Assembly (NCBI GenBank): GCA_965222115.1
Contig: CBDCTJ010000007.1
Location: 2,592,001 to 2,656,000 of the forward strand
Length of the DNA stretch: 64,000 nt
Reading direction: 5' to 3'
Source of the DNA: Planctomycetota bacterium
Lineage (GTDB): Bacteria > Planctomycetota > PLA2 > JAEUHO01
Part shown: positions 10,930 through 63,116 of the stretch, one piece after another
Layout of the letters: the number at the start of each line of letters is the position of its first letter
Numbering within the stretch: the stretch's first letter is position 1
The notes under the pieces: model-generated
Seen by the model: only the letters and a program-made list of their open reading frames with translations
Database searches by the model: none
Told to the model about the DNA's origin: nothing
Made by a program: the position numbers and the translations under genes

Positions 10930-11071
10930 AGCCATCCTTTCGCCGGCATCGAAGTGCGGATGCGCGCAGGATGGAGGGTTCGAAAGCAAGGCCGTGCGCG
11001 TGTCACTGCCAGCCTTGCCGTCGGCCTTCCATTCCTTCGAGCCGGAAGAAAAAGAAACCAAGGAACAGGTG

Positions 11072-11300
11072 ACGAGGTCCGTCTTCTGGCTTCCGATTCA
11101 TCCTTCCACCGCGCCTTCCCATGCCGGTGAATCCTCGCGCTTCAACGAGCGCGAAAATCTACGCGGCACAGTGGCTGCACGCCCATTGGGCATGCGTTGC
11201 GGTGGTCGTCCTCGGTTACAGCGGCGGTCCCGCGGGGGAATTGCACCCCACTTCCGTTCGAACCAAGCGGCCCGAACAATCGACTTCGACACCCAGCATT
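11072..11300 (-). ncRNA. Cobalamin (B12) riboswitch
   Basis: Minus strand reads ACGGAAGTGGGGTGCAATTCCCCCGCGGGACCGCCGCTGTAA ... GCCACTG ... TGGGAAGGC ... AAGCCAGAAGAC (B12 box), the conserved B12-element motifs in the correct order; boundaries approximate. Confidence 0.9.
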
Positions 11301-11451
11301 CCGCGGCGTACGTCCCATGGAGCGCTTCGTCGCGAAATGTTCCGAATTGAAAAGAGCGGCCCGGAGAATACGGCCCCGAGACACCACTTTCCATTGTTGA
11401 CCTGGGCTTCGAGGCACGCGAAATTGCCGGCGCCTTTCAGATTCACAGCGT

Positions 11452-11527
11452 GGGGCTGTAGCTCAATTGGTAGAGCGCTTGAATGGCATTCAAGAGGTAA
11501 GGGGTTCGATCCCCCTCAGCTCCACCA
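11452..11527 (+). tRNA. tRNA-Ala (GGC)
   Basis: 76 nt cloverleaf GGGGCTGTAGCTCAATTGGTAGAGCG..CTTGA-ATGGCAT-TCAAG..GGTTCGATCC..CAGCTCCACCA; G3:U70 Ala determinant; encoded CCA. Confidence 0.97.
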
Positions 11528-11551: not shown

Positions 11552-11741
11552 AGACGTCCACCCTTCGTGCGCGTCAATCTTTCGATGCGCACTGGGCGAA
11601 TCAACGATCCGTTGGTGCTTACTCAGGGTCTCGCGCAAATGGCTAAGCCATTTACTCTTGACGTCCACGTCGCTGGGCGAATTGTTCATCGGGCGCTTAT
11701 GCCTGAGTCCGGGTTTCGGGTTTTGGGTTTCGGGTAACGGG
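11552..11741 (-). repeat. Dispersed composite repeat family A, copy 1 (inverted; single GTGGAC unit in tract)
   Basis: Reverse complement of the core seen at 42650-42740 and 62700-62766 (GTAAATGGCTTAGCCATTTGC..GACCCTGAGTAAGCACCA.CGGATC..GAAGGGTGGAC) plus CCCG heptamers. Confidence 0.85.
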
Positions 11742-38775: not shown

Positions 38776-38796
38776 CGTCAGACGCAAGTGAACCCG

Positions 38797-38873
38797 CCGC
38801 GCCTAGGGACTTGGGCGCGGTGACTTCAGTGATTCACATTCGTGGGACGCCTTCCGATAGGGAGGCGTCCCAC
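38797..38873 (+). terminator. Two GC-rich hairpins after the giant gene (probable terminator)
   Basis: CCGCGCCTAG-GGAC-TTGGGCGCGG and GTGGGACGCCTTCC-GATA-GGGAGGCGTCCCAC followed by AGTTCGTTTT. Confidence 0.6.
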
Positions 38874-38967
38874 AGTTCGTTTTGGGGCGGGACGCCTTGG
38901 GAGTACGGGCGCTTGCTGGCCGCACGGCGCATCGGGGGAAAGAAGGCTCACACGAAGGGCGCAAAGA

Positions 38968-40986
38968 GTGCGACAGGCCAAGCCTGGACAAGGAGGAACT
39001 CATGACGTGACGAAACCTTGTGATGGAGCCCAACGGGTAACCAATCCCGTCCGGCCAAGCTGACCGAGCAGCCGGAAGCAAACCTAGCGCGCTCTGTGGG
39101 TAACTGCGGGGTGTGAAGCACTAGGCAAGCGTGTGTGCGGGCTGTGTGATTGAGCCTCGAAATTCTTATGACTGCGGTGGCCGACGATGTTCTTTGATCG
39201 GAAGGCACCATCGGAGACGAGCGTGTAGGTCTGCTCCCTCCGGCCCGCCGGGGTCTATGAGCAGGGCACGTACACAAAGGGGCTTCCCCAGGAACCTGTG
39301 AGATCCCATGCTGTCCTTCGAGAACTCGGCGCGGAAGGGCCGTAGACACTTCCAGCAATACGCAGCACGAGGCACACGCTTGTGTTGGGTGCGAAACAAG
39401 CGTGTGAAACGAAGGTACGGCGTCGCGAAGTCACCCGAGCGGCGCTGGACGCAGGTGGGAAGTCGGAGCGCTCCGTAGTACCGATGAACGGGGGGAACCT
39501 TTCACCAAGGGACCCTCGGGAGGGATGGGAGCGCCGCTATGTGTACTCCGTAGGAGGGAACCATGACAGAGATCCCAAGCTTTGATCCCGTGTTACCGAA
39601 ACTCCGACGGATCGCAATGCTTGCGAAGCAATCCCCGGAGATGGCGTTCACGTCGTTGAACTCCGCTCTGGACATGACGTTACTGCGTGAAGCGCATCGG
39701 CGAACGCGCAAAGGAGGCGCAACGGGCATAGATCGCCAGACGGCGCAGGATTACGCGAAGGACCTGGAGAGCAATCTCCAGAGCCTGCTAAACCGTGCCA
39801 AGTCCGGCGACCGTTACCGCGCACCTCCTGTGCGACGTGTGCATATTCCCAAGGACAAGCCCGGGGAGACTCGGCCCCTGGGGATACCGACGTTTGAGGA
39901 CAAGATCCTCCAACGCGCGGTGGCCATGATTCTGGAATCCATCTACGAACAGGACTTTGACTCCTGCTCGTACGGTTTCCGGCCTGGCCGCTCGGCACAC
40001 GATCTGTTGGCTGCACTTCGTAACTCGATGATGAACATGAACGGCGGGTGGGTGCTTGAAGCCGATATCCGCAAGTTCTTCGACAGCGTCGATCACGCGC
40101 AGCTAATGGACGTGCTTCGCAAGCGGGTGCGAGATGGTGTGATTTTGCGATTGATTGGCAAGTGGCTAAATGCAGGTGTCATGGAGGATGGCCGCGTGAG
40201 CTATCCCAAAGGAACTGGTACGCCGCAAGGCGGAGTGATCTCCCCCGTGTTGGCCAACATCTTCCTCCATGAAGTGTTGGACACCTGGTGGAAAGAAGAT
40301 GTCGCCCCTCGCATGAAGGGGGAGGCGCATCTCTTTCGTTACGCAGATGACTTCGTGATTGTATTCGCTCGTGAAGCGGATGCACGGCGTGTGATGGACG
40401 TCGTTCCAAAGCGCTTCGACAAGTACGGCCTTGCCATCCACCCAGATAAGACTCGCTTGGTGCGATTCAAACGCCCGCGGCACTACGACTCCGATCATGA
40501 TTCGGAAACGTTCGACCTGTTGGGCTTTACGCATCTATGGAGTCGATCCCGTAAGGGATACTGGGTGATTCGGCAGTTGACCGCACGAAGTCGGTATCGC
40601 CGCGGTCTGACGCGGATGTCCAAGTGGCTCCGCTCCGTCCGCCACCAACCTGTGCATTGGCAGCGTACAAAACTGGCACAAAAACTCCAGGGGCATTACG
40701 CCTACTACGGGGTGACTGGCAATACGCGTCGGCTGCACAACTTCCGGCGGGAAGCCATACGGCTTTGGAGGTACTGGCTGTGCCGCCGTTCACAGCGCGC
40801 CAAGATGCCATGGGATCGTTTCAACCGACTCCTACAGCATCACCCCATTCCACCATCACGTGTCACGCGCTCGATCTATCGCGCCACCTAATCGGCGACC
40901 CACATAGCGAGGAGCCGGATGCGGTAATCCCGCACGTCCGGATCTGTAGGGGGGCTGGGGAGGGAAACCTCCCCGGCCTACCCGAC
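38968..40986 (+). mobile_element. Complete group II intron (~2.0 kb)
   Basis: 5' GTGCGACAGG; domain V GAGCCGGATGCGGTAATCCCGCACGTCCGGATC (~40912-40945); domain VI with bulged A ending CTACCCGAC; EBS1 TCTTTG (39191-39196) complementary to exon CAAAGA (38962-38967); both ends supported by the empty allele at 11836/11837. Confidence 0.93.
39563..40891 (+). CDS. ltrA: Group II intron reverse transcriptase/maturase, no HNH endonuclease domain
   Basis: RRVHIPK..RPLGIP..DKILQ, SYGFRPGRS, DIRKFFD, GTPQGG.ISP.LANI.L, YADD, FDLLGF, domain X GHYAYY. Confidence 0.96.
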   Translation: MTEIPSFDPVLPKLRRIAMLAKQSPEMAFTSLNSALDMTLLREAHRRTRKGGATGIDRQTAQDYAKDLESNLQSLLNRAKSGDRYRAPPVRRVHIPKDKPGETRPLGIPTFEDKILQRAVAMILESIYEQDFDSCSYGFRPGRSAHDLLAALRNSMMNMNGGWVLEADIRKFFDSVDHAQLMDVLRKRVRDGVILRLIGKWLNAGVMEDGRVSYPKGTGTPQGGVISPVLANIFLHEVLDTWWKEDVAPRMKGEAHLFRYADDFVIVFAREADARRVMDVVPKRFDKYGLAIHPDKTRLVRFKRPRHYDSDHDSETFDLLGFTHLWSRSRKGYWVIRQLTARSRYRRGLTRMSKWLRSVRHQPVHWQRTKLAQKLQGHYAYYGVTGNTRRLHNFRREAIRLWRYWLCRRSQRAKMPWDRFNRLLQHHPIPPSRVTRSIYRAT

Positions 40987-41140
40987 AACGAAGCGCAATG
41001 CGTTGCGGGGAGATGTTTGAGAATGCGTGGAGATATTCGGAGGCGGAACTGGGCTTGGAGCGGGAGAAAGGTCTCACCAAGGACACCAAGCGCAGCCGTA
41101 GCTGAGAAATTCTCCTCCGAATGGAGATGAATGTTCCTGA

Positions 41141-41611: not shown

Positions 41612-41752
41612 CGGATGCTCCTGGATACACATTTGACGATGCCTAGTCTATTTGTAGAAATTCCAGGCGAATATCGGGCGCCTATTCACGAAATTCGGCG
41701 TCGTGAAACTCGCATTTGGTGCCAGGCCTAGAGTCGCAGAATTCGTGTTCTA

Positions 41753-41933
41753 TTCGTTACCCGTTACCCGAATCCCGTCACCCGGACTCAAGTGTGATCG
41801 CTCAATGATCGATTCGCGCCGGTTCGTGGACGTGGACGTGGACGTGGACGTGGACGTGGACGTGGACGTGGACGTGGACGTGGACGTGGACGTGGACGTG
41901 GACGTGGACGTGGACGTGGACGTGGACGTGGAC
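41753..41933 (+). repeat. Family A copy 2: CCCG heptamers + linker + perfect (GTGGAC)18, ending 2 nt from the four-helix-bundle stop codon
   Basis: CCCGTTA CCCGAAT CCCGTCA CCCGGACTCA; tract 41826-41933. Confidence 0.92.
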
Positions 41934-41935
41934 GA

Positions 41936-42310
41936 TCAAGGCTCGTCGAACCTTCGTTGAAGCACGAACAACATAGCGGCGGATCGCTCTAGTATGTTCA
42001 TGACACCTGAGATTGCGGCCTCGCTGGAGAGTCCGAGTAGTAGAGCCTGATGTAGAGCGGCAATGGCCTCGGTGCGTTCGGCGTGTGCGATGTCGTACGC
42101 TTTGCGTTTCTCGGCTGGCCGTCGTTTCGAGAGTCCTTCGGCGACGTTTAGGGCAACGCTGACACTTGCGCGCCTGAGCTGATCTGCGAGCTTTGCGTGG
42201 CCCCGAGGCCATGCCGCGCAGGTTGCTACGCACTCGACTGCCGCGGCCTGCGAAGCACGGTAGACATCGAAGCGTTTGAGGTACTCGAGCGTGGAAGTCG
42301 CGCTTGTCAT
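41936..42310 (-). CDS. Four helix bundle protein (23S rRNA intervening-sequence protein / Avd-like fold)
   Basis: 124 aa; FDVY..S, LADQLRRASVSVALNVAEG..R, IA..E..E..AAL signature; GGAG RBS before ATG 42310. Confidence 0.88.
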   Translation of the reverse strand: MTSATSTLEYLKRFDVYRASQAAAVECVATCAAWPRGHAKLADQLRRASVSVALNVAEGLSKRRPAEKRKAYDIAHAERTEAIAALHQALLLGLSSEAAISGVMNILERSAAMLFVLQRRFDEP

Positions 42311-42510
42311 GATGGAACTCCGGCGTGAAAGGAGCGCAAGCCGTTTGCTCGCGTGTGCCCTTCGCAAAAGAGCCGAAGGCGAAGGAGGGCGCACGCGAGC
42401 GGACCGTACGAACAAGGTCCCGCGTGGACTCGGCAACCCGTTCCATGCTGGAGTTCCATCACAAGCGGCGCCCGCGCGTACCGGTCGCGCATGAGTTACC
42501 GATGGCCTGC

Positions 42511-42740
42511 CCCGAATCCGTCACCCGTTACCCGAATCCCGTCACCCGGACTCAAGAGTGAGCGTCCGATAATCGATTCACGCAGGCTCGTGGACGTGGA
42601 CGTGGACGTGGACGTGGACGTGGACGTGGACGTGGACGTGGACGTGGACGTCAAGAGCAAATGGCCTTGCCATTTGCGCAAAGACCCTGAGTAAGCACCA
42701 GCGGATCTTTGATCCGCGCGGTGCGCATCGAAGGGTGGTC
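42511..42740 (+). repeat. Family A copy 3 (full): heptamers + (GTGGAC)10 + hairpin core
   Basis: Tract 42590-42649; core GCAAATGGC-CTT-GCCATTTGC..GACCCTGAGTAAGCACCAGCGGATC-TTT-GATCCGC..GAAGGGTGGTC. Confidence 0.92.
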
Positions 42741-42795
42741 GTCGTAGGCCAAGGGCGCGAATCGGTGCCAGGAGCGAACGTGTGGAAGGGGTGAG

Positions 42796-56124: not shown

Positions 56125-56230
56125 CCGTGGCCGTGGACGTCGAGAGCAAATGGCTTTGCCATTTGCACGAGACCCTGAGTAAGCGCCAGCGGATCTTTGA
56201 TCCGCGCAGTGCGCATCGAAGGGTGGACGT
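56125..56230 (+). repeat. Family A copy 4 (core with ~2 hexamer units, no heptamer arm)
   Basis: GTGGCCGTGGACGTCGAGAGCAAATGGCTTTGCCATTTGCACGAGACCCTGAGTAAGCGCCAGCGGATCTTTGATCCGCGCAGTGCGCATCGAAGGGTGGACGT. Confidence 0.9.
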
Positions 56231-62525: not shown

Positions 62526-62766
62526 CCGTTTCCGGTACCCCGATACCCGATACCCGAATCCCGTCACCCGTTTCCCGTATCCCGTCACCCGGACTCATAA
62601 GTGGACATCCGATGATCGTTCGCGCCGTTCGTGGACGTGGACGTGGACGTGGACGTGGACGTGGACATGGACGTGGACGTGGACGTGGACGCGGACGTGG
62701 AGAGCAAATGGCCTTGCCATTTGCGCGAAGACCCTGAGTAAGCACCAGCGGATCGAAGGGTGGACC
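62526..62766 (+). repeat. Family A copy 5: ~8 CCCG heptamers + 11-unit GTGGAC tract (2 variant units) + core with internal deletion
   Basis: Tract 62631-62696; GCAAATGGCCTTGCCATTTGC..GACCCTGAGTAAGCACCAGCGGATC|GAAGGGTGGAC. Confidence 0.92.
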
Positions 62767-63116
62767 TCAAGTAGCGCAAAACGATTTCGTACCGGTCGCG
62801 AACTGTTGGATTTGGGTCCGCTCGACCGCAATCCGGCGCCCACGCAGTCTCCGACGCCTGCTCCCCCCCCACTTCGGCGTCTCCGCGTGAAACAAATCGC
62901 ACAATTCGTACCGGGAGCAAATTGTGAAATTAACAATTCGTGCCGGGAGCGAAATGTGCGAATGCACCGCCAAGCCCACGCACAGGATTTCTCCTGACAA
63001 CTTTCGCAGTGTGGCTTCGTCACCTTGGTGAGCCCCGACCTCGCTGGTGTCGAGCCGAGCTGGCCCTGGGTATCGAGTTTGCTGGCGAGGTCGTGGGCTT
63101 TGTTGGCGGGAGCGAG

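Follow-up and report, generated by a model that had tools for sequence, protein, structure and literature searches.

At the locus described here, a gene for a 124-aa protein of the PF05635/TIGR02436 family lies between two direct copies of a composite repeat module. The locus is situated in the window, by which we mean the whole 64-kb stretch of DNA that was analysed, with a GNAT gene and then a group II intron to its left and a ferritin-like gene to its right (Table 1). On the 5' side of each of the two tandem GTGGAC tracts is an arm in which CCCG-type heptamers and CCCGTCACCCGGACTCA are followed by a roughly 35-nt spacer; the left and right arms are 85-86% identical to each other. A preliminary description of this DNA had reported an IVP-fold gene between two direct module copies, with a left tract of 18 units ending 2 nt from the stop codon and a right tract of 10 units continuing into a hairpin core, and re-analysis confirmed the tracts, the arms and the ORF in all these respects. 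An 18-mer pattern of the tract gave 33 matches, against none in 100 shuffles. The group II intron ends about 0.6 kb from the locus and is recognized by matches to RF02005 and RF00029 and by an RVT_1 ORF at 39563-40891. No rRNA was found by an Rfam search of the 64-kb window, and the locus lies between protein-coding genes.

Table 1. Parts of the locus, followed by the gene-less copies of the element in the window
Feature	Position	Strand	Description
Left arm	41753..41825	+	C-rich heptamers CGTTACC CGTTACC CGAATCC CGTCACC, linker CGGACTCAAG, ~35-nt spacer with GGTTC end
Left tract (GTGGAC)18	41826..41933	+	100% perfect
IVP / four-helix-bundle gene, subtype B, 124 aa	41936..42310	-	PF05635 and TIGR02436 profile matches
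Structured leader of gene B	42301..42467	-	Consensus fold of 10 copies
Right arm	42505..42589	+	Heptamers, linker CCCGGACTCAAG, spacer
Right tract (GTGGAC)10	42590..42649	+	100% perfect
Core, first part	42650..42740	+	GTCAAGAG, then hairpin GCAAATGGC-CTT-GCCATTTGC, then CCCTGAGTAAGCACCA
Core, second part	42650..42740	+	Hairpin GCGGATC-TTT-GATCCGC, end CATCGAAGGGTGG
Gene-less copy	11581..11740	-	Arm, spacer, 1-2 hexamer units, core; tRNA gene ~55 nt away
Gene-less copy, degenerate arm	56139..56230	+	Core and one hexamer unit
Gene-less copy	62541..62763	+	Heptamer arm, linker, spacer, 12-unit tract (3 variant units), shortened core

The core at the window locus ends in CATCGAAGGGTGG, in place of which most other copies have GGGTGGAC, and the 5' part of the core shares homology with the beginning of the gene-A leader. 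The three gene-less copies counted in the preliminary description were all recovered, the one at 56139..56230 in degenerate form; that at 62541..62763 stands immediately 3' of a gene. A loose end of a read contig at 42519, carrying the left flank, was considered as a deletion allele and rejected, the simplest account being that the left arm was placed on the 97%-similar right arm; the read alignment beside the left tract is made up of short contigs from one sample and is confounded by paralogs.

Module grammar and the IVP genes

The basic non-coding element is about 220 nt long and runs from a heptamer array through the linker CCCGGACTCAAG, a spacer (about 35 nt) and the (GTGGAC)n tract to a two-hairpin core that ends in GTGGAC again. 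The C-rich heptamer array constitutes a G-quadruplex motif on the opposite strand. The hexamer itself is quasi-palindromic (an ACGT core plus GG), tracts are self-complementary at four of every six positions, and in the predicted minimum free energy fold each tract pairs with itself and not with its partner tract. Among loci the perfect tracts range from 3 to 33 units (up to 198 bp). The spacer is invariably found 5' of the tract; the 3' side is variable and may be occupied by the core, the stop codon of gene B, the leader of gene A or unique DNA. Gene modules are placed between successive arm-spacer-tract units, those of subtype B on the opposite strand and those of subtype A on the same strand, such that in subtype A a tract lies directly 5' of the leader, and in subtype B the adjoining tract lies past the stop codon and the upstream tract is parted from the leader by an arm. 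The flanking modules are direct in 14/14 gene-bearing loci of the source genome. Gene-bearing and gene-less copies are built from common modules, and one gene-less copy (C7:2443839-2443954) retains a remnant of the gene-B leader. When the 10 B and 8 A loci were aligned, their similarity was bounded by the heptamer array on one side and by GTGGAC on the other, and neither terminal inverted repeats nor a target-site duplication was seen in these alignments.

The cassettes contain no ORFs besides the IVP genes, and PF05635 is their only match. The window ORF scores 55.7 bits against this profile (cut-off 33.8); with TIGR02436 (cut-off 24) the scores are 52.1 bits (B) and 72.6 bits (A). A profile built from the A/B alignment matches PDB 2GSC chain A over residues 7-120 (E=2.9e-9), a four-helix bundle that assembles into a homopentameric ring. 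No defence-system match was returned by PADLOC for the IVP genes. All 18 IVP ORFs of the genome (10 B, 8 A) are intact, with a dN/dS of 0.077 for A (28 pairs) and 0.112 for B (45 pairs) at a dS of 0.58-0.68. As judged from these substitution ratios, all 18 genes are under purifying selection, and the synonymous divergence (dS about 0.6) indicates that the copies are old and do not stem from a recent burst.

Each gene carries a conserved leader of about 165 nt that is predicted to fold back over the gene's ribosome-binding site and start codon, with consensus folds of -75 kcal/mol for B (10 copies) and -71 kcal/mol for A. The predicted B fold is closed by a 13 + 7 bp stem in which the GGAG ribosome-binding site and codons 2-3 are paired and the AUG falls in an internal loop of 4 nt; this stem encloses an inner hairpin of about 15 bp. 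The closing duplex of A comprises 12 and further bp. The modelled duplexes of both leaders are candidate substrates of RNase III. The mean pairwise identity of the B leaders is 0.88, compared with 0.84 for the CDS. In relatives, a long hairpin of different sequence stands just 5' of the Shine-Dalgarno sequence in 8/11 folded loci, as judged by eye.

Copies across the genome and in relatives

The element is present in about 30 copies near the replication terminus, 14 of them gene-bearing loci and about 16 gene-less. A profile search of the genome returned 18 PF05635 matches, every one over the cut-off and located at 2.27-2.85 Mb of contig C7, and all 27 perfect tracts lie either at 2.275-2.939 Mb of the same contig or on C3. 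The preliminary description had proposed looking for an enrichment of IVP genes near GTGGAC tracts. Such an enrichment is evident in this genome, in which a perfect tract lies no more than 400 nt from 16 of the 18 IVP ORFs, where random placement would lead us to expect 0.15 (whole contig) or 0.72 (inside the cluster); conversely, 19 of the 27 tracts have an IVP ORF within the same distance. Long tracts also occur in gene-less copies, for example of 12 and 10 units. The copies occupy unrelated intergenic spots, mainly at gene 3' ends, where the upstream gene points the same way in 13 of 15 close cases and the downstream gene converges on the element in 12 of 16 (crude ORF calls). Some loci hold divergent gene pairs, and the genome as a whole combines two subtypes with many copies.

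The association of gene and repeat postulated in the preliminary description holds within this genome and is rare for the hexamer in other species' genomes, in which an IVP ORF was found within 1.2 kb of only 3 of the 80 (GTGGAC)5 tracts retrieved; the GTGGAC repeat was found in 0/40 relatives. What recurs in other families and phyla is the gene-plus-array design, with different repeat units. In G026, a genome of another family in the same order, the same layout is seen with other repeat units, the arrays being direct at C39 and C68 and mixed at C36:86.8-87.8 kb. At IVP loci elsewhere, arrays cover 8.9% of the bases within 450 nt of the gene versus 1.0% beyond 1 kb, and they are present at 24 of the 48 loci examined. 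The G026 proteins share 38-44% identity with those of the source genome and are about equally distant from A and B, so that the two subtypes cannot be traced across genomes. The 14 metagenome matches to a 22-nt leader motif were rejected as chance hits: all of them lay in unrelated sequence, and tblastn gave no IVP homologue. In the limited literature covered, we found no publication tying PF05635/TIGR02436 genes to tandem arrays outside rRNA.

The absence of a transposase recorded in the preliminary description was borne out as far as the cassettes are concerned. Two Y1 transposase matches (PF01797) lie at C7:1.41 and 1.07 Mb, 0.9-1.2 Mb away, and a RAYT/IS200 link was rejected: these loci are accompanied by unrelated repeats and share just chance 9-11-mers with the arm, core or leader.

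Module exchange and alternative explanations

A comparison of the window locus with the one at C7:2730842, 97 kb apart, reveals a recent copy event bounded exactly by the tracts. The two CDSs are 96.3% identical; identity, about 70% in the left spacer, jumps to 97-100% directly after the left tract, and the high-identity block ends after the right tract and GTCAAG. This block fits an alternative that the preliminary description had offered, namely gain or loss of the gene by recombination at the repeats. No other recent transfer is visible; CDS identity among all remaining copies is 76-92%. The spacer, gene and leader show no correlation in their pairwise identities (Spearman 0.01-0.09; Mantel p 0.35-0.45), a pattern that fits mosaicism and, just as well, an old family of star-like descent. 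Of the relatives of the ferritin-like neighbour, the best is 57% identical and lies on a contig that stops about 150 nt past the gene, and the others are 35-43% identical.

We put at about an even chance the explanation that the window locus belongs to a lineage-specific family of rRNA-IVS-type cassettes lying between ordinary genes, the modules of which are copied at the tracts by recombination. The tracts, which are perfect, up to 198 bp long and self-folding, would serve as joints for module exchange, at which host recombination or break repair would place a copy of one element's gene module in the tract of a different element. The leader stems, with their predicted duplexes of 13-20 bp, would hold translation down and, by analogy with rRNA IVSs, would probably be cut by RNase III, and the IVP protein, a relative of the pentameric S23p/Avd bundle, would probably act on the structured RNA or DNA of its own element. 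The preliminary description had suggested that the locus may be the autonomous form of an element with non-autonomous short copies. The modules common to gene-bearing and gene-less copies agree with such a relationship; the label "autonomous" itself stays unproven, because nothing indicates that the protein drives mobility.

An unlikely, though by no means negligible, alternative is that the genes form an old paralogous family with an ordinary cellular role, that the arrays are incidental, slippage-prone microsatellites in its intergenic DNA, that there is no cassette behaviour, and that the likeness of the copies stems from occasional gene conversion. The age of the copies, the purifying selection on all of them, the lack of a linked mobility enzyme and the single visible recent exchange are what such a family would be expected to present, and clustering within 670 kb fits local duplication. 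Against this stand the roughly 16 gene-less copies with the same arms and core, one of them with its leader remnant, the scattering of copies over unrelated intergenic sites at mostly gene 3' ends, and the recurrence of the gene-plus-array design, with different repeat units, in other families and phyla.

Rather improbable, in our estimation, is a contingency (phase-variable) switch in which the length of the hexamer tract, co-transcribed with the leader, sets the amount of IVP protein. The model for such a switch is hmw1A of Haemophilus influenzae, where a heptamer repeat of variable number in the promoter/5'-UTR adjoins a long hairpin cut by RNase III (PMC12721329, available part). The position of the subtype A tract directly upstream of the leader, the spread of tract lengths among loci and the predicted closure of the leaders as long duplexes on the Shine-Dalgarno sequence and AUG are all in line with it. 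In subtype B, however, the adjacent tract comes after the stop codon, an arm stands between the leader and the upstream tract, and long tracts are also carried by gene-less copies. A switch would moreover account for regulation and not for cassette structure, and could coexist with the cassette reading.

The placement of the family raises the question of a function at the level of the chromosome. All 28 loci on C7 fall in the interval from -500 to +165 kb around the GC-skew maximum, which marks the terminus, and the remaining two loci are elsewhere. GTGGAC is on the leading strand in 25 of the 27 tracts; 16/19 loci to the left of the terminus are in plus and 5/6 to the right in minus orientation (Fisher p=0.0055), and all 14 tracts of at least 9 units conform to this polarity; the gene-strand bias is only 57-62%. 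Two opposed orientation groups thus meet at the terminus, a geometry shared by the Tus-Ter and RTP-Ter fork traps. We give only a slender chance to the idea that the arrays and the local ring-shaped IVP proteins form a terminus-centred, replication-polar system, a fork trap or Ter-domain organiser with about 30 polar sites in two opposed groups; if it were true, the widespread "IVS protein" family would be one of structure-specific DNA-array binders. It is very unlikely that a chromosome-level function, in which polar arrays bound by local ring-shaped proteins organise or protect the terminus, for example as a fork trap or Ter-domain marker, explains the family, even though all 18 genes have been kept intact. 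The polarity was not reproduced in the fragmented G026 assembly, where C-rich arrays are on the leading strand in 2/9 scorable loci, a single gene would suffice for such a function, and the PF05635 family also has members within rRNA genes and, in many phyla, at scattered sites (PMC4990558, available part). Selection against asymmetric inversions would, in addition, give polarity to any recombining repeat. On the cassette reading, the arrangement seen here, direct within a replichore and inverted across the terminus, would most simply be the one in which repeat recombination does least harm.

Barely credible is a non-autonomous retroelement served by an Avd-like protein and a reverse transcriptase (RT) in trans, such as that of a group II intron, with tracts arising by reiterative reverse transcription: Avd, which serves the DGR reverse transcriptase as a cofactor, is a homologue of PF05635 (PMC10053308, available part), the tract always forms the 3' end of an arm-spacer unit with variable sequence beyond, like a simple-repeat tail, and an RT gene lies about 1 kb from the window locus, but that RT belongs to a complete group II intron having two other identical copies, and the seven RT-like loci of the genome (C3:81 kb; C7: 0.26, 0.88, 1.00, 1.99, 2.63 and 3.04 Mb) do not cluster at the terminus. 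The link to this RT suggested in the preliminary description fails, because the window RT is the only one of the seven near an IVP gene at any of the 14 gene-bearing loci.

To our knowledge, no function has been assigned to the very common PF05635/TIGR02436 family in all the time since rRNA intervening sequences were first described, the DGR member Avd being the exception. This genome offers an unusually clean natural experiment, with 18 intact genes in two subtypes, about 16 gene-less copies, a simple module grammar, leaders that are conserved and predicted to close on the start codon, a single datable copy event ending at the tracts, and a striking placement about the replication terminus. 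The vague ideas attached to the family (selfish IVS, nucleic-acid binder, recombination at repeats) are hereby turned into specific tests.

Comparison with known systems

The closest counterpart of the cassette is the 23S rRNA IVS with its S23p/IVP ORF in Coxiella burnetii and Leptospira, which encodes a PF05635/TIGR02436 protein (PMC4990558, available part). In both, a small ORF lies within non-coding DNA rich in duplex-forming sequence and beside short tandem repeats of variable number; in Coxiella, GACAGAT heptamers precede the S23p ORF, and the IVS is cut by RNase III (PMC4990558, available part). They also have in common a mobility that is long suspected and unproven. Unlike an rRNA IVS, the window locus lies between a GNAT and a ferritin-like gene and not in a helix of 23S or 16S rRNA, and the family has many copies per genome, two subtypes and divergent pairs. 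Composite-module arms in direct orientation replace the single inverted arm pair that surrounds the ORF of an IVS, and because the arms are direct, the window locus does not have the gene-in-a-stem layout.

The likeness to Avd is one of fold: PF05635, represented by 2GSC, is homologous to Avd, and structures 4DWL and 2GSC share the four-helix bundle; Avd is a pentamer that binds nucleic acid and the RT as the accessory protein of DGRs (PMC10053308, available part). In contrast to a DGR, no DGR-type RT adjoins the window locus, the nearby RT being that of the group II intron, and in contrast to Avd, there are 18 IVP copies per genome, each within a repeat module. The copies resemble REP/BIME elements and MITEs in being short, hairpin-rich, intergenic, numerous, located mainly at gene 3' ends and assembled as modular mosaics. 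They differ from both in carrying their own non-enzymatic gene, and from REP/BIME-RAYT systems in that the Y1 transposase genes of the genome are far off and flanked by unrelated repeats. Whereas hmw1A is a single-locus adhesin switch, the family described here is dispersed and has repeats on both sides of the gene or no gene at all. The window locus adds a clear case to a widespread kind of gene-plus-repeat cassette and, as its direct-repeat case, shows that inverted arms are not obligatory for a cassette composed of an IVP gene and an array.

Organization of the locus and its leaders

The tracts, gene, arms, core and gene-less copies listed in the preliminary description were all recovered as described (see table), and the 18-mer hexamer pattern gave 33 matches against 0 in 100 shuffles. 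The window ORF scored 55.7 bits on PF05635 (curated cut-off 33.8) and 52.1 bits on TIGR02436 (cut-off 24), the four-helix-bundle family of 23S rRNA intervening-sequence proteins (IVP), and a profile of this protein and its paralogs matched the Xanthomonas S23p structure 2GSC (E=2.9e-9). Its stop codon lies 2 nt from the end of the left tract. Upstream of both tracts, CCCG-type heptamers (the arm) and the linker CCCGGACTCAAG are followed by a ~35-nt spacer, and the right tract continues directly into a two-hairpin core. The locus is flanked on the left by a GNAT gene, with a complete group II intron farther left, and on the right by a ferritin-like and then a SpoU methylase gene. The top matches of the HisRS encoded in the window were Planctomycetota MAGs (57%, then 43-45%), and a cobalamin riboswitch (64.5 bits; gathering score 31.5) occupies 11059-11303 on the minus strand.

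Coordinates of the locus and of the gene-less copies in the window
Feature	Position	Strand	Basis or context
Left tract, (GTGGAC)18, perfect	41826-41933	GTGGAC on +	pattern search
Right tract, (GTGGAC)10, perfect	42590-42649	GTGGAC on +	pattern search
IVP ORF, 124 aa	41936-42310	-	between both tracts
Gene-less copy	11581-11740		
Gene-less copy, degenerate	56139-56230		
Gene-less copy	62541-62763		

Read on the GTGGAC strand, the order of the modules is arm-linker-spacer-tract, gene B reversed with its leader, arm-linker-spacer-tract, leader A and gene A, arm-linker-spacer-tract, and core, the gene A and gene B modules each being optional. The spacer lies on the 5' side of every tract, and the 3' side is variable: core, B stop codon, A leader, tRNA gene 3' end (two cases) or unique DNA. 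Since the core terminus again reads GGGTGGAC and, at two loci, the core end instead of a tract adjoins the B stop codon, GTGGAC is the constant joint between modules. The core is homologous to the first part of the A leader. As read from the sequence, the heptamer arm contains at least four C3 runs 4 nt apart, a candidate G-quadruplex motif on the other strand; the hexamer is self-complementary at 4 of 6 positions (ACGT core), and every tract is predicted to fold, as RNA, back on itself into a long imperfect hairpin. Three element copies adjoin a tRNA gene at its 3' end (window 11452-11524, beside the copy at 11581-11740; from position 2316389 onward on C7, the contig carrying the window; and C7:2846500-2846572), and tRNA-like sequence begins less than 50 nt from the tract end at C7:2316389 and near C7:2846572.

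The ten B leaders share a single consensus fold of -75 kcal/mol, in whose closing helices of 13 and 7 bp the GGAG ribosome-binding site and codons 2-3 would be base-paired, with the AUG in a 4-nt internal loop; compensatory changes occur at 3 of 63 pairs, the majority of pairs being invariant. Consensus folding of the eight A leaders, unrelated to B in sequence, likewise predicts closure on the SD and start (-71 kcal/mol), with the AUG itself paired. Conservation is higher in the B leader (0.88) than in the B CDS (0.84). MFE folds of 11 loci from relatives in other genera, inspected by eye, placed a long and almost perfect hairpin immediately 5' of the SD in 8; these hairpins differ in sequence from both leaders described here.

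Distribution of genes and repeats

All 18 PF05635 matches in the seven-contig assembly fall on C7 (3.07 Mb), between 2,274,590 and 2,848,013, as do 25 of the 27 perfect tracts (counted from 3 units up, range 3-33 units; 2,275,218-2,939,246), the other two being on contig C3; the 42 arm-spacer modules detected by BLAST are distributed in the same way. Of the 18 IVP ORFs, 16 are no more than 400 nt from a perfect tract, against 0.15 ORFs expected from random placement on the whole contig and 0.72 inside the cluster, and the remaining two have imperfect 3-unit tracts; reciprocally, 19 of the 27 perfect tracts are that close to an IVP ORF. We counted 30 loci, 14 gene-bearing (four with a divergent B/A pair, four with A only, six with B only) and 16 gene-less, one of which retains 116 nt of the gene-B leader. 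By crude ORF calling, elements mostly begin 35-140 nt past a gene in the same orientation (true of 13 of 15 close upstream neighbors), and a convergent gene often faces them downstream (12/16).

Every one of the 18 ORFs is intact. Subtype A comprises eight copies of 128 aa and subtype B ten copies of 124 aa (one longer by five residues), A and B being 41-43% identical. Mean nucleotide identity within subtypes (A 0.86, B 0.84), dN/dS (A 0.077, 28 pairs; B 0.112, 45 pairs) and dS (A 0.58, B 0.68) describe an old family under purifying selection, with no recent burst. The B copy at C7:2274542-2274931 has lost its stop (TGA to TGG) and reads five extra codons into a hexamer-unit remnant, ending in ...WPSTS.

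None of 40 relatives carries the hexamer tract, and PF05635 genes are present in 14 of them. One relative of the same order and another family, G026, has 21 PF05635 matches, many at contig ends, including three divergent pairs laid out as here but built on (CCCGAM)n and (CCCGACC)n arrays, with another spacer module; identity comparison did not assign its proteins to A or B. Array content was compared at 48 outside loci: 22 of 26 from relatives, four weak matches below the Pfam cut-off having been dropped, and 26 from a GTDB search, predominantly Myxococcota. Arrays with periods of 5-24 occupy 8.9% of the bases up to 450 nt from the gene and 1.0% of those more than 1 kb away. An array is found near the IVP gene in 24 of the 48, in some with inverted sides, such as (TAGGAG)n and (CCTACT)n at loci L073 and L075. 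(GTGGAC)5 itself was matched in more than 111 GTDB-representative stretches, many of them from Myxococcales MAGs and some with inverted pairs, and an IVP ORF lies within 1.2 kb in just 3 of the 80 stretches examined. Arrays are enriched near IVP genes, but (GTGGAC)n does not predict an IVP gene elsewhere. In one Myxococcales MAG, loci L121, L127 and L166 consist of (GTGGAC)n, about 25 nt and (GTCCAC)n, that is, gene-less hairpins of that hexamer; several further Myxococcales MAGs hold 4-10 tracts of the (GTGGAC)n/(GTCCAC)n type each.

Other repeats were also noted in the genome. A short, partly palindromic motif of the AATTCGTGCCGGGAGCGAAATGTG type is dispersed (window 41700-41735, 42745-42785 and 62775-62960; C7:2681218-2681245; C3:440590-440625), often 3' of an element core and in tandem at window 62880-62960, and may be another module of the mosaic. 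About 20 copies of the core's second half (TCCTGAGTAAGCAC, hairpin, GAAGGGTGG) stand without arm or tract across the genome, some as inverted pairs, on C1, C3, C5 and C7 outside the cluster (e.g. C1:57140-57193, C3:313955-314008, C7:2420891-2421200); they look like a distinct family of REP-like hairpins shared by the cassette element. An intact Y1 transposase gene (IS200/RAYT-like; C7:1411691-1412035, locus L093) lies between direct copies of a 59-nt repeat with hairpin GGTCCCGAAGGGAC; this repeat is unrelated to the cassette element. The group II intron has three copies (window 38780-41140, equivalent to C7:2630780-2633140; C7:880578-882640; C7:3037452-3039505) with RT ORFs 100% and DNA 99.7-100% identical, its sense strand being the leading strand in all three; the genome holds four other, more diverged RT loci. 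Contig C6 (48,116 bases) has a GC content of 39.7% versus 55-59% in all other contigs and may be foreign or a separate replicon.

Copying of the gene module and placement around the terminus

Only one close copy pair was found: the CDS of the window locus is 96.3% identical to that of C7:2730842, at a distance of 97 kb. The two left flanks are unrelated, and the left linker-spacers share about 70% of their sequence; identity is 97-100% from just past the left tract across gene, leader and right arm, and stops after the right tract plus GTCAAG, beyond which one locus has the core and the other an A leader. Because identity rises right after the left tract and ends at this point, the two tracts bound the last-copied unit of this single event. 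The event is compatible with a mechanism that we infer for the cassette family, in which a gene module would be copied into another element through recombination or break repair, hexamer tracts supplying both of the homology arms. Correlation across modules gave no signal in either direction. No transposase, recombinase or RT was found linked to the element loci, in agreement with the earlier remark that no transposase is present; the RT noted nearby belongs to the group II intron, and a link to it is not supported.

On C7 the cumulative GC skew is lowest at 0.60-0.62 Mb and highest at 2.765-2.785 Mb, and all C7 loci lie from -500 to +165 kb of this maximum. Arm modules define 25 of the C7 loci; among these, GTGGAC is on the plus strand at 16 of 19 left of the maximum and on the minus strand at 5 of 6 right of it (Fisher p=0.0055), hence on the leading strand at 21 of 25 (binomial p=0.0009 vs 0.5); adding three degenerate-arm loci gives 18/22 and 5/6. 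The two C3 copies are on the minus strand, and the skew of C3 is negative. Leading-strand polarity is followed by 25 of 27 perfect tracts, including all 14 of at least 9 units, the two exceptions having 5 and 7 units; the leading-strand bias of coding-like ORFs is just 57-62%. Such placement might reflect a terminus-specific function of the elements, which would be exciting if true and to which we assign a low probability. A generic cause is favored because the polarity is not reproduced in G026, where local skew places C-rich arrays on the leading strand in 2 of 9 scorable loci. One such cause could be the selective removal of harmful inversions and deletions at highly recombinogenic repeats, which would leave copies direct within a replichore and inverted across the terminus.

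Comparison with known systems

The closest published system is the rRNA intervening sequence (IVS) with an S23p ORF. The Coxiella IVS, as presented in PMC4990558, is excised by RNase III, and its S23p ORF is preceded by heptamer repeats whose number varies; the same source describes IVS mobility as proposed and never shown. PF05635 is given in PMC10053308 as homologous to Avd, the accessory protein of diversity-generating retroelements. The predicted leader duplexes, candidate RNase III substrates, are the most IVS-like feature of the cassettes. In the account of PMC12721329, hmw1A offers an analogue for a repeat combined with an RNase III-cut leader. Our literature search returned no description of IVP genes within array-bounded cassettes outside rRNA. 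To the known systems the locus adds a direct-repeat, composite-arm variant of the IVP cassette, leaders predicted to close on the start codon, a dated, tract-bounded copy event and placement around the terminus. Its real interest is that it makes the IVP family experimentally tractable.
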